This document shows, one piece after another, positions 34,044 to 45,019 of a DNA stretch of 64,000 nt (position 1 is the first letter of the stretch; every line of letters starts with the position of its first letter). Position numbers and translations under genes: made by a program. Source of the stretch: Eledone cirrhosa (lineage: Eukaryota); contig OZ024743.1 in the NCBI GenBank assembly GCA_964016885.1, positions 58,528,001 through 58,592,000 of the forward strand, written 5' to 3'. The notes beneath the pieces were generated by a model that saw only the letters and a program-made list of their open reading frames with translations, was not told where the DNA came from and searched no databases.

Positions 34044-34236
34044 GTTTTAATATAGATGAGATTCTACAGGACTAGAACTGTTTCATTCTTTAGAAATCAT
34101 CAGGAATCCTGATGATTTCTAAAGAATGAAACAGTTCTAGTCCTGTAGAATCTCATCTATATTAAAACTTTTATACTCTGCAATGTATTGAGTACCTTAC
34201 TTACTGTGGTTACCTCCGATTCAACCCGGAATAACG
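34044..34236. mobile_element. (TA)n-flanked fold-back module, family F (perfect arms 34044-34104 / 34108-34168, 68-nt tail)
   Basis: Palindrome centred at 34106; second copy at 44827-45019. Confidence 0.9.
34059..34109 (-). ncRNA. Type I hammerhead ribozyme motif, family F
   Basis: ggattc-CTGATGA-t ttc taaa gaa t-GAAA-cag ttctagtc ctg-TA-gaatct; GUA cleavage triplet. Confidence 0.8.
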
Positions 34237-34300
34237 TATATATATATATATATATATATATATATATATATATAAGTGGTTACACAACAGTTAGTTCACC

Positions 34301-34346
34301 ATCCCGAGAACAATTGTTTCACCTTCGCGGATCTTCAGCTCGGGAT
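34301..34346 (-). ncRNA. Type I hammerhead ribozyme motif, family G
   Basis: atcccgag-CTGAAGA-t cc gcgaa gg t-GAAA-caattg-TT-ctcgggat; perfect 8-bp stem I, palindromic stem III. Confidence 0.88.
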
Positions 34347-34862
34347 GTGTATGGTTATAGGAACAGGAAGGACAACCGTACGAACGCGCATGCGCAGAAA
34401 CTCGGTCACTTCACAGGGGCAATACTAGACTGCGTGCGGGATGGTGTAAGTGAGATAACTGCGAAAGTCCGGAAAGTTTTTAGGTTGAAAATAAAATAAA
34501 AAAATTAAAAATAAAATTACAAAGAATCAGTCCGGAACCTTGTAGTTATGCAATAGATGTTTGGTGACGTGTGGACAACATGTGAAAAATTCACTTCTCA
34601 GGTTTAGGCAATTACTATTGCGTAATCTCTTTAGGATAGATATTCGTTCGTCAATACATAAGCCACACGTCGGATTTCCCCTTTCGTATAGCTTGGACTT
34701 AGTGATGGCTTTCCATTGAATGGAGTAGCCTATACTTGAGTCCTTGAGGGACCATACGTGGCTCGCGAGTCTCGTGGATACCCGGAGTCTGTCCGGGTAT
34801 CTGAAGGTAGACTGGTGGTTCAGGAAACGCTCCTTGAATCGGCCCTCCGCCATGCCCACAAG

Positions 34863-35723
34863 GACTCATGCCACCCACCCACTGTTTTCAGAAACTTCGT
34901 TAAGAATATGAGTACTAGAATCTCAAACCTCTGTTCTAATAAGGCTATCTTTGACAGAGCGGCACCCTACTATAACATGGCGTTGGCTAACAGCGGCTTC
35001 TCACAACCTATCACCTACTCTCCCACTAGCAACAACACCATTAAGAAAAGTAAGCGCATCAATAGACAAACTATCTGGTTCTCTCCTCCCTTCTCACTCA
35101 ACGTTAAAACCAATGTAGGAAAAAAATGTCTAGCCCTCTTAGATAGACACTTCCCCATAGGTCATAAATACCGCTCCATCTTTAACCGACACAAAGTTAA
35201 ACTAGGATAATCCTGCGCTAAGAACATGAAAGCCCACATCACCAGCAGCCCTAGGAGCCGCACCCCACCAGGGTGCTCTTGCCGTAAGCCTGAAGCTTGC
35301 CCCCTTCAACAGCAATGCAACACACCAGCTGTAATCTATGAAGCTGTGGACACTTCCAACCGACCAAACGAACCACAGGAGGTCAAATCCTATGTGGGCA
35401 TGGCGGAGGACCGATTCATGGAGCGTTTCCTGAACCACCAGTCTACTTTCAGATACCCAGACAGACGTTCATCCACGAGACTCGCGAGCCTAGTATGGTC
35501 CCTCAAGGACTCAAGTATAGGCTACTCCATTCAATGGAAAGCCATCACTAAGTCCAAACCATACGAAAGGGGAAATCCGACGTGTGGCTTATGTATTGAC
35601 GAACGAATATCTATCCTAAAGAGATTACGCAATAGTGATTGCCTAAACATGAGAAGTGAATTTTTCACATGTTGTCCACACTTCACCAAACATCTATTGC
35701 ATAACTACAAGGCTCCGGAGTGA
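34863..35723 (+). pseudogene. Penelope-like RT thumb/linker plus GIY-YIG endonuclease (one in-frame stop at 35208-35210)
   Basis: DSCHPP, APYYN.AL..SGF, IWFSPPFSLNVKTNVGK, IFNRHKVKLG*SC, CSCRKPEACPLQQQC, VIYEA...YVGMAE..F.ERF.NH, CGLCIDE, C.N.RSE...CCPH. Confidence 0.9.
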
Positions 35724-35903
35724 TTCTTTGTAATTTAATTTTTAATTTTTTTATTTTATTTTCAACCTAAAAACTTTCCGGACTTTCGCAGTTATCTCCC
35801 TTACACCATCCCGCACGCAGTCTAGTATTGCCCCTGTGAAGTGACCGAGATTCTGCGCATGCGCGTTCGTACGGTTGTCCTTCCTGTTCCTATAACCATA
35901 CAC

Positions 35904-35949
35904 ATCCCGAGCTGAAGATCCGCGAAGGTGAAACAATTGTTCTCGGTAT
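35904..35949 (+). ncRNA. Type I hammerhead ribozyme motif, family G (sense copy)
   Basis: atcccgag-CTGAAGA(35912-35918)-tccgcgaaggt-GAAA(35930-35933)-caattg-TT-ctcggtat. Confidence 0.85.
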
Positions 35950-36111
35950 GGTGAACTAACTGCTGTGTAACCACTTCTACCTAACTCGTCCCTCGGACTG
36001 AGTGCTCTAACACTACGGATATTCCCTTCCAGTGTTCCACCACTATATATATATATATATATATATATATATATATATATATATATATATATATATATAT
36101 ATATATATAGT

Positions 36112-42152: not shown

Positions 42153-43046
42153 ACTATAATTTAATGAGCTCAAGGAATATATATACACATAATATACATA
42201 TATTTGTATATATATATATATATATATATATATATATTCATATATATATATATATATATGTATATATGTATATATATATAATATATATATACATATATGT
42301 ATATATGTATATATATAGATGTATATATATACATATATGTAGACACATATATATATATATATATATATGTATATATGTATATACACATAACATATAAATA
42401 TACATACATACATACATACATACATACATACATACATACATACATACATACATACATACATATATATATATATATATATATATATATATATATATATATA
42501 TATATATATATATATATATATATATGTATACATAATTATAGCCATACGTGTGCATGCGTATGTGTGTATGTATATATGAGCATTAGCAAATTAAATGCAG
42601 CATTTATTAAATATTATTTCTCACATTCTCAATACCATAAGAATGGAATAATAGAACGTCGTTATAAATCTCCGTAGTACCGTATAGACAATATACTCCC
42701 ATTATGCATAAAACTGAAATTACCTATATCGAATTCTGAGTAGTCGATTCCTCCTCATAACGTTGTATATGTATATCGATAGATAGTGTGTGCGAGATGA
42801 CATTTCTATTACATTTTAGTAGAGCAAGAACTCCAAGAAATATATTTTTATAATACTGCAAAATATTATAGGTGAGAGCAGGAAATACATTAAAGTATTC
42901 ATTCTAATTTCAACTATAAAGACGTCTGACATTTTAACAGAAAAGAAGCGAAAAGCATGGAATCTTTCGTTTTACCTGACTGACTATTGCCAACTTTACA
43001 TAGTAGGAGCATTAGTATTTATAACGAGCTTAGTAGGTGAAATATT

Positions 43047-43222
43047 AATTGTTTCTACTTTTGGCACAAGGCCAGCAAATATCCAGTGCATTACTGGTAC
43101 TTATTTTATCGACCCCGTAAGGATGAAAGGCAAAGTTAACGTCGGCGGGATTTGAACTCAGAACGTAAAGTGACATAACTCTATGCTGCGAAGCATGGTG
43201 TCTGACGCTCAACCGATACTGT
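43047..43222 (-). mobile_element. tRNA-derived SINE
   Basis: Consensus match. Confidence 0.85.
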
Positions 43223-43650
43223 GAAATATTAATGTTATTATACTATACGTGGGTCATATGTTAGAATGGTATGGACAGCAGTACCAGGGACCGATGAGTA
43301 GTGGCGATCTCACGAAGCTTTTGATACCAATCCACGACCTTCCCCCAAAAAAGTTTCATTATTATAAAATAAGTGTGTAAACAAATAGTTCGGTATTTTA
43401 ACATATGTAATTTACACCCCCCCCCCATATATATATATATATATATATATATATATATATATATATATATATATATATAAAGAATTAATATATCTAGTAA
43501 CATATATATACACACAGATGCATACCAATGCTAGCAAATACATAGATTTTGTCTTAGTAACTTTGTGGTTCAATGCATGGGGTTGCAGAACAATAATATG
43601 AGAGACGTAAAATAAGAAAATTATAAAATTAACTTACTTACTAACATTTC

Positions 43651-43732
43651 ACTCCCAACTAATTAGTTTCTGAAAGGGAATAAATATACTTTCCGAAGAA
43701 AATATTGAGAAGCCTTTCGTCGTCAGGGAAGT
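43651..43732 (-). ncRNA. Type I hammerhead ribozyme motif, family H, within a 525-nt unit bounded by a 21-bp direct repeat (43476-43496 / 44001-44021)
   Basis: acttcc-CTGACGA-c gaaagg ... cctttc a-GAAA-ctaattag-TT-gggagt. Confidence 0.8.
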
Positions 43733-44119
43733 CTATTCTCAGCTAAGTTTCCAGGCGATACGTGGACTCTGGGAACTTATACAAAAATAATTCAGTGGAT
43801 AGAAAATAGCAAAGCGTGGACTGAATTCCTAGCCATTGAGAAAATCACTGCCTACTGCGTCGGTGGCAAATTCAAAAAGAATCAATCACGTGACATCGAG
43901 GTCAATCAGTGGAAAGTGGTTTGTTAAGAAGACAGCAGCCTTCCTGCTACCATAGCAGCAGTCTTGGCCAATATTGCTCGACAAATAATTTGGAGATAAA
44001 TATAAAGAATTAATATATCTATATTGTATGTATGTATGTAAGTATGTATGTATCTATATGTTTGTATCTATACATATATATATGTCTGTATGTATATATA
44101 TATGTATGTGTATATATAC

Positions 44120-44640
44120 CTGTCTCATGGTCGGGTCGTTGGCGACTAAACTGGCAACCCCACAAAAGGTTTCTTCGTTAGGAGGGTGACTTTGGACATC
44201 CTGCAGGACTAAAAACAAAACCTGTCAAAGGGCAAAGGAGCTCTTAAGTATCAATGGCCATCCAAAATCACCGGGAGAGATGACCCTAAAGCCTTTGTCA
44301 AGGCAGAATTCTAGGAGAAGGAAAACTCTGATATAACACCTGCAACCCTGATGGTATCCAATGATGTTGACTTGTTCTTCTTTTTGGTAAATATCATCTT
44401 GGTTAAGAGAGTGGGACTGGCTTTGTGCAGTGCCTTTGCTCACTATAAAAGCTTCACGGCACAGGCATTGCTTTATATCTGGAGATCTCTCTGCACTTGC
44501 CGTCACATGGTACCATGGGCCCAGAACTATATGTCAATAATTGTCACAAGTGTAGTGTTTGTACCAGAGTTTTCAAGTCGCTGGGTGGACTAAAAAGTCA
44601 TATTCGTTCAGCGCATCGGCCGTACTCGATGACGAGTTGG
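44120..44640 (+). mobile_element. Rearranged RTE-like LINE remnant with C-terminal C2H2 finger
   Basis: CSVCTRVFKSLGGLKSHIRSAH followed by tactcgatgacgag. Confidence 0.5.
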
Positions 44641-44826
44641 CAGCCACCATGTGTATATATATATATATATATAATATATATATATATATATATATATATA
44701 TATATATATATATATATATATATATATATATATATACATATATATATATATATAATATATATATATATATACATATATATATATATATAATATATATATA
44801 TATATATATATATATATATATATATA

Positions 44827-45019
44827 CGTTATTCCGGGTTGAATCGGAGGTAACCACAGTAAGTAAGGTACTCAATACATAGCAGAGTATAACAGTTTTA
44901 ATATAGATGAGATTCTACAGGACTAGAACTGTTTCATTCATTAGAAATCATCAGGAATCCTGATGATTTCTAATGAATGAAACAGTTCTAGTCCTGTAGA
45001 ATCTCATCTATATTAAAAC
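44827..45019. mobile_element. Family F fold-back module, second copy (tail on left); HHR 44910-44960 minus strand
   Basis: Same termini and fold-back point (centre 44957) as 34044-34236. Confidence 0.9.

Follow-up and report, generated by a model that had tools for sequence, protein, structure and literature searches.

Two closely related palindromes of a short repeat, named family F in an earlier reading of the letters alone (the sequence-only reading), lie in a 64,000-nucleotide (nt) stretch of Eledone cirrhosa DNA (assembly GCA_964016885.1, contig OZ024743.1, positions 58,528,001 to 58,592,000 of the forward strand), which is called the window here and supplies all coordinates (Table 1). 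Copy 1 spans 34043/4-34236 and copy 2 spans 44827-45019/20; they stand in opposite orientation and align over 193 nt with 97.4% identity, and a third close copy was not found in the 64-kb window. In each copy the two arms are perfectly complementary (62/62) around an AAT centre, one arm bears a 67-nt tail, and TA runs flank the whole on each side. Both copies read CAGG-AAT-CCTG on the plus strand, a word (given as a 17-mer) that occurs twice in the window against 0.03 expected. The two palindromes with opposite tails and a common plus-strand AAT that had been described before are confirmed. As DNA they fold into hairpins of about -68 kcal/mol by computation. Duplication of one locus was rejected as the source of both copies, their flanks having only simple repeats in common (local scores 19-22, 8 of 8 pairings). 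An older, unfolded F relative with hammerhead core and tail is present at 5860-6000 (72% over 58-62 nt).

The copies differ at five positions, namely two mirrored bases of the stem-II loop (34089/44974 and 34123/44940), the central base (34106/44957) and two tail bases (34170/44893 and 34182/44881). The loop variants are taaa and taat, and each copy has its own variant in both arms, as the sequence-only reading had stated. The outer bases of the AAT loop also pair, leaving arms of 63 nt and a centre of 1 nt in both copies. Since the first and last loop bases pair, the 3-nt loop that had been described as inverted relative to the tail amounts to one A/T base; what stands of that description is that the full stem I of a hammerhead motif lies in the short arm of copy 1 and in the tail arm of copy 2. 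Taken by itself, the A/T difference at the centre is indistinguishable from a point change at the level of the two assembled copies. The claim of two isomers depends on this single base, and the raw reads support it only in part.

Each F arm contains CUGAUGA, a 3-bp stem II, GAAA, a 4-bp stem III and a GUA site, the core of a type I hammerhead. A complete 5-bp stem I occurs only on the strand reading ATT, and the imposed hammerhead structure has -3.8 and -4.9 kcal/mol on the ATT arms versus +0.1 and -1.0 on the AAT arms. The hammerhead is not the minimum-energy fold in unconstrained folding of the F arms. Stem II opens with U.U and then U-A in place of the common, though not universal, G10.1-C11.1 pair, and this opening may lower ribozyme activity; metazoan Penelope hammerheads are atypical and weakly active (PMC4209133). 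Rfam gave no match at the gathering score across the whole window. An E-value scan of 34000-36100 returned 31 sub-threshold matches, mostly microRNA hairpin models on the palindrome or TA runs, among them one weak hammerhead match (20.3 bits versus 56.3). The microRNA and viral labels of that scan were rejected, and metagenome pattern scans produced 0 matches.

The family was followed in raw reads of other individuals, comprising three restriction-site associated DNA (RAD) runs (X6, X7 and X8) from other samples of the same species label, aligned to copy 2. About 5000 of 12.5-12.8 million reads per run aligned; these samples carry 0.52-0.55 of the query words at best and possibly belong to another population. 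Two other runs, X1 and X2, with shares of 0.10 and 0.05, do not enter the counts. Figures for read letters, joints and loose ends are those among the rows listed, and since RAD reads are non-independent and cover few loci, read counts are not locus counts. The Logan contig set (X3) was kept out of the centre counts because short contigs cannot orient a palindrome centre. Past 44959, 774, 753 and 797 reads (X6, X7, X8) leave the alignment with one common continuation, and past 44957 another 356, 340 and 386 leave. About 3400 reads thus exit at one of these points versus 97 that cross the centre, and most members of family F are unfolded here. The main read group remains aligned up to and including 44959, which identifies ATT as the native reading and places the fold at the 5' strand of stem I. 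Of the 30, 19 and 48 centre-crossing reads, 0, 4 and 0 have T. The roughly 50:50 loop orientation that had been expected is not seen, 4 of the 97 centre-spanning reads being flipped in a sample of few loci, from RAD libraries in which hairpins are probably underrepresented.

Table 1. Features of the two family F palindromes and of the elements compared with them (window coordinates)
Feature	Position	Strand	Remark
Copy 1, short tail-less arm	34043..34104	-	Native ATT stem I and intact hammerhead core; orientation from read loose ends past 44959
Copy 1, loop AAT	34105..34107	.	Single unpaired centre 34106
Copy 1, tail-bearing arm	34108..34169	+	Hammerhead core, one stem I mismatch (AAT)
Copy 1, tail, 67 nt	34170..34236	+	TGAGTAC-type motif, common to tails of other families in the window
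Predicted type I hammerhead, copy 1	34060..34108	-	Predicted cleavage after 34065; motif scan and imposed-structure energy
Copy 2, tail, 67 nt	44827..44893	-	
Copy 2, tail-bearing arm	44894..44955	-	Native ATT stem I
Copy 2, loop AAT	44956..44958	.	Centre 44957
Copy 2, short tail-less arm	44959..45020	+	
Predicted type I hammerhead, copy 2	44911..44959	-	Predicted cleavage after 44916
(TA)n right of copy 1	34237..34273	.	Likely microsatellite target
Further TA-rich runs: left flank of copy 1, both flanks of copy 2	about 44654..44826 and 45021..45193 (copy 2)		Likely microsatellite targets
Family D comparison element	34274..36045	+	Inverted arms, broken GIY-YIG-like open reading frame, tail on direct arm
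Family E palindrome	17260..17727	+	1-nt centre 17548; native reading enters the tail-less arm, tail on the inverted arm, as in copy 1

The reads also bear on the origin of the two arms. At 44940 the commonest letter in the family reads is T (52-55%), followed by G (25-27%) and A (20-23%), and the copy-2 letter is found in only 20-23%; reads 99% alike amount to 344, 600 and 614 of about 5000 per run. In X6, the copy-1 letter is present in 1104 of 2109 reads at 44940, 615 of 736 at 44893 and 265 of 1385 at 44881. The three non-central differences are therefore common family variants, so that the copies probably derive from different source RNAs. Because the arms are identical within each copy though loop II varies strongly across the family, it is supported that both arms of each insertion came from one template. 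It is likely that copies 1 and 2 are independent, young insertions; if the two tail differences dated from after insertion, the arms should differ at about 3.7 positions, and they differ at none (P about 0.025). Palindromes of two further families, E and G, likewise have copy-specific variants common to both arms, though their arms are no longer identical. Eight of the 11 measured inverted pairs in the window keep arm differences (for instance, 20/156 and 14/506 in older palindromes), which argues against general homogenisation by the assembly or the cell. As to the proposal that the second arm is synthesised from the first through a hairpin at stem I, the single template and the fold at the 5' strand of stem I hold up, while the hairpin as sole mechanism is weak in view of its energy (+2.6 kcal/mol) and of the tail.

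Families D, E and G were labelled in this analysis, and together with F they give six cases in which the side of the tail could be determined. Three of them, F copy 2, G 63794 and D 34274, bear it on the native arm; the other three, F copy 1, E 17260-17727 and E 17782-17964, bear it on the inverted arm. The assignment of G 63794 depends on the view that its stem-II hairpin represents the native form. Nine further palindromes, at 1544, 8860, 9738, 12580, 14802, 25108, 50691, 55082 and 55516, were left out of this count owing to decay or to the lack of a native reference. That either end can take the tail, as the sequence-only reading proposed, agrees with this count and had been published already (PMC8557442). 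For E 17260-17727, two unfolded E copies show the native reading running into the tail-less arm; its arms differ by 2 substitutions and 2 indels. The end of the tail-less arm is fixed per family, in both F copies and in 3 of 3 tail-less E arms, and the latter stop where two tail-bearing E arms enter the tail.

Several side observations concern these palindromes. In the region 17260-19450, one arm of the E palindrome contains an 18-nt duplication; a TA run follows, and after it a second tail plus inverted arm fused directly to a broken open reading frame (ORF) resembling reverse transcriptase (RT) and GIY-YIG. Joining 17782-17964 and 20595-20773 into a single insertion was rejected as their variants differ. 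The G palindromes 63794-63990 and 55516-55700 fold at a long hairpin just before GAAAC; the G fold point is likely hammerhead stem II rather than stem I, and hammerhead stems may be general junction hot spots. The palindrome at 55082-55485, with 166-nt arms that are 99.4% identical and a central TA run, has a geometry unlike the other window palindromes. Different hammerhead-bearing families also cluster within common TA runs (34274, 17094), only about 37 nt of TA lying between copy 1 and a family D arm.

Besides complete palindromes, forms without overlap are found. At 17094-17222 and about 8690-8815 (families D and G), a tail-only piece is joined to an inverted tail-less arm, with the junction 3-9 nt inside the tail. 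In the family F reads, the joints 44888->44939 on opposite strands (27, 32 and 57 reads in X6, X7 and X8) and 44880->44978 (0, 111 and 46) are a tail joined to an inverted arm without overlap. A further joint, 44959->44898 (back 62, with 15-16 letters between; 55, 20 and 32 reads), is a direct partial tandem of units of about 78 nt with hammerhead, seen at the level of the family and not in copies 1 and 2; these retrozyme-like units are present in all three read sets. In addition, loose ends past 44957 and 45001 and before 44913 indicate a second F-related subfamily in which both strands of stem I are apparently changed in a compensatory manner, though phase is not visible. At the junction 44892/44975 (24 and 25 reads in X6 and X7), a tail-bearing arm stops beside the predicted cleavage site and is followed by CCC, which is possibly cDNA of a self-cleaved RNA with untemplated additions.

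The F copies are likely 5'-truncated ends of a Penelope-like retroelement, consisting of the hammerhead core and the 67-nt tail, inserted in TA runs. Endonuclease-positive (EN+) Penelope-like elements (PLEs) have head-to-head inverted pseudo-long terminal repeats (pLTRs) with junction palindromes and a tail optionally on one (PMC3846280), tails at either end and AT-rich or (TA)n targets (PMC8557442), as well as a pLTR hammerhead and direct partial tandems (PMC3846280, PMC8557442). Among these traits, F shows the type I hammerhead motif, head-to-head inverted repeats with a palindromic junction, the tail on one arm and the TA targets, and its reads add the direct partial tandems. The TA repeats on each flank of the F copies would hide the limits of any target-site duplication. 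The TGAGT-A/G-C motif of the F tail is common to the D, E and G tails in the window. Next to families D and E lie broken ORFs; in the Atlas clusters nearest to these, 22-27% of members have GIY-YIG, which serves as a lead only. Unlike published PLEs, F has only 62-nt arms, no ORF, a tail of 67 nt, a fold on stem I and a central base that marks the native arm. Non-LTR retrozymes, too, consist of short units with a type I hammerhead and no coding capacity, and are related to PLE pLTRs (bioRxiv 10.64898/2026.07.22.740005); the F copies are inverted pairs and not retrozyme tandem arrays, tandems occurring elsewhere in the family F reads.

In LINE-1 (long interspersed nuclear element 1) twin priming, a single RNA is copied into cDNA from primers on both target strands, and a join at short homology gives an inversion. 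It is proposed here, at what we judge to be even chances, that the two F arms are likewise cDNAs: each nicked target strand would have primed one of them, at one of two start sites on a single RNA, and the two would have been joined head-to-head at stem I of the hammerhead. The cDNA from the far start site would become the tail arm and the cDNA from the near start site the tail-less arm. Both would halt on reaching the 5' strand of stem I. Their joining would go through the quasi-palindrome GA-A-TC, with the two ends annealing across an A.A mismatch or, alternatively, with one cDNA briefly folding back and then bridging to the other. The strand that supplies the centre would fix A or T and so give rise to two isomers. 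The priming step has a biochemical basis, as the purified Penelope-like protein, a predicted dimer, cuts and extends both target strands with no strand difference, and reverse transcription has two start sites, with the tail as the interval between them (PMC11167929, main text); all steps after priming are those that we infer, and they remain unvalidated in that system (PMC11167929). One argument for twin priming is the tail found on the inverted arm in 3 of 6 cases, as copy-back, without a further step, has no means of adding a tail absent from its template; another is the presence of T-centred raw reads in X7. In our best reading, it explains the fixed tail-less ends, the inverted-arm tails and the non-overlapping forms. 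The wider suggestion that PLE inverted pLTRs are generally made by twin priming is more tentative, falling somewhat short of even chances; here a dimeric RT-endonuclease would make two cuts, one RNA would be copied twice, hammerhead stems would be the stall-and-join points, and the central base would record the junction donor. No paper proposing twin priming or centre isomers for Penelope elements was found among the titles, abstract openings and passages covered, a body of text outside which most subscription papers and the older Penelope reviews fall.

Several observations weigh against this interpretation. No intermediate has been observed. The 97 centre reads divide into 93 A and 4 T (95% interval 1-10% T), a skew that disfavours twin priming since random mismatch repair would give an even split; the T-centred reads (4 of 19, with 3 starts) are all in X7, from one other individual, and could come from copies that are tail-less on both arms. 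The 17094 junction has 10 nt of microhomology, and the non-overlapping forms also fit deletion within a former palindrome, which would account for 17094 equally well. With regard to Penelope membership, the F tail of 67 nt compares with 30-40 nt published, no Pfam match was obtained for 4 of 4 D/E-type frames, and none of the 244 candidates in a longer-protein search with the family D frame gave a score. Since both F copies lack an ORF, it is their anatomy and their neighbours that place them with the Penelope-like elements.

Self-priming, with a later rearrangement for half of the isomer pair, carries an appreciable though minor share of the probability and comes nearest to what the sequence-only reading had proposed. 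A tail-started cDNA would fold at stem I and prime the second arm, giving the copy-2 form, and the copy-1 form would follow by spacer inversion, through polymerase template switching or arm recombination, or by nuclease resolution acting on a symmetric intermediate. Self-priming has been proposed for head-to-head pLTR palindromes (PMC3846280) and nuclease resolution for either-end tails (PMC8557442), while the inversion of spacers and the homogenisation of arms are known effects of template switching (PMC8604942). That process would yield identical arms with an inverted spacer in F, though it acts after insertion and independently of the element, leaving the tail and the fixed arm ends unexplained. 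The read skew of 93:4 towards the copy-2 form is what self-priming predicts, and the stability of the DNA hairpins also favours it. Nevertheless, the native end offers it only one C:G pair over a 3-nt loop at +2.6 kcal/mol, and on its own it does not explain the exact stop of the second arm at the near start site. In E 17260-17727, moreover, the tail is on the inverted arm though the arms have not been homogenised.

It is improbable that the centre of one copy, or the concordance of the arms, is an artefact of assembly or polishing. Only one base is at stake, a palindrome centre cannot be oriented by words shorter than the arm or, by this reasoning, by short-word contigs, and T is lacking in 2 of the 3 raw-read runs. 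Against this stand the T-centred raw reads of X7, the same geometry with unequal arms in family E, and the arm differences retained in 8 of 11 inverted pairs; the window is also free of N and crosses long TA runs, which suggests long reads. More improbable still is an ordinary A/T substitution at the centre without any inversion. Only a single base differs, and hairpin tips are plausible mutation hot spots; the chance is about 1% at the divergence of the copies (3/129 non-redundant sites), and 0/62 arm differences in both copies point to little change after insertion. DNA replication by parvovirus-like rolling-hairpin transfer with terminal resolution is very remote: the hairpin end of adeno-associated virus (AAV) does have flip and flop forms (PMC11575299), but the F hairpin is internal to a chromosomal insert and not a genome terminus, about 3400 reads exit at 44957/44959 versus 97 spanning, the hammerhead, the tail and the TA targets are all as expected of a retroelement, and no Rep-like frame was recognised among 75 listed ORFs, of which only 6 were scanned.

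Comparison with known systems further delimits what is proposed. In LINE-1, there is hardly any overlap between the two parts and the position of the second start varies, whereas in F the same 62 nt would be copied twice from a fixed second start. Non-overlap of the LINE-1 type is not found in the F copies, which overlap fully, and is found in two window elements and two read joints. For PAc, a Poseidon element of the green anole, in vitro work located two start sites that bracket the tail, with both strands cut and extended, AT-rich targets and a hammerhead near the start (PMC11167929). Its main text does not apply these results to inverted pLTRs. Unlike in PAc, no ORF has its start at stem II in F. 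The inverted terminal repeats of AAV and parvoviruses also present the unpaired part of a palindrome in two orientations (PMC11575299). Those ends are terminal hairpins of linear single-stranded DNA with a Rep nick, in contrast to F, whose copies are internal chromosomal inserts with TA on both sides; the flip/flop likeness drawn in the sequence-only reading is an analogy only, and no Rep-type feature was seen.

Other coding sequences are present in the window. A 270-aa frame at 40188-41000 (+) with tetratricopeptide repeats is probably a host gene exon. A 389-aa frame at 23125-24294 (+) with an RVT_1 reverse transcriptase domain is likely a LINE remnant, and LINE-like pieces also occur near 36116-36806 and 60193-60690.

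The architecture described here is already known for PLEs, and its value lies in the test that it offers rather than in a new kind of element. How tandem and inverted ends are formed is a named open problem for these elements (PMC8557442). The minimal F copies suggest predictions that can be counted, namely tail side, centre base, arm concordance and junctions clustered at the tail boundary. Such counts would separate twin priming from self-priming by means of the existing assembly and the existing in vitro assay. If twin priming is true, minimal palindromes such as F would provide a genome-wide readout of the joining step.

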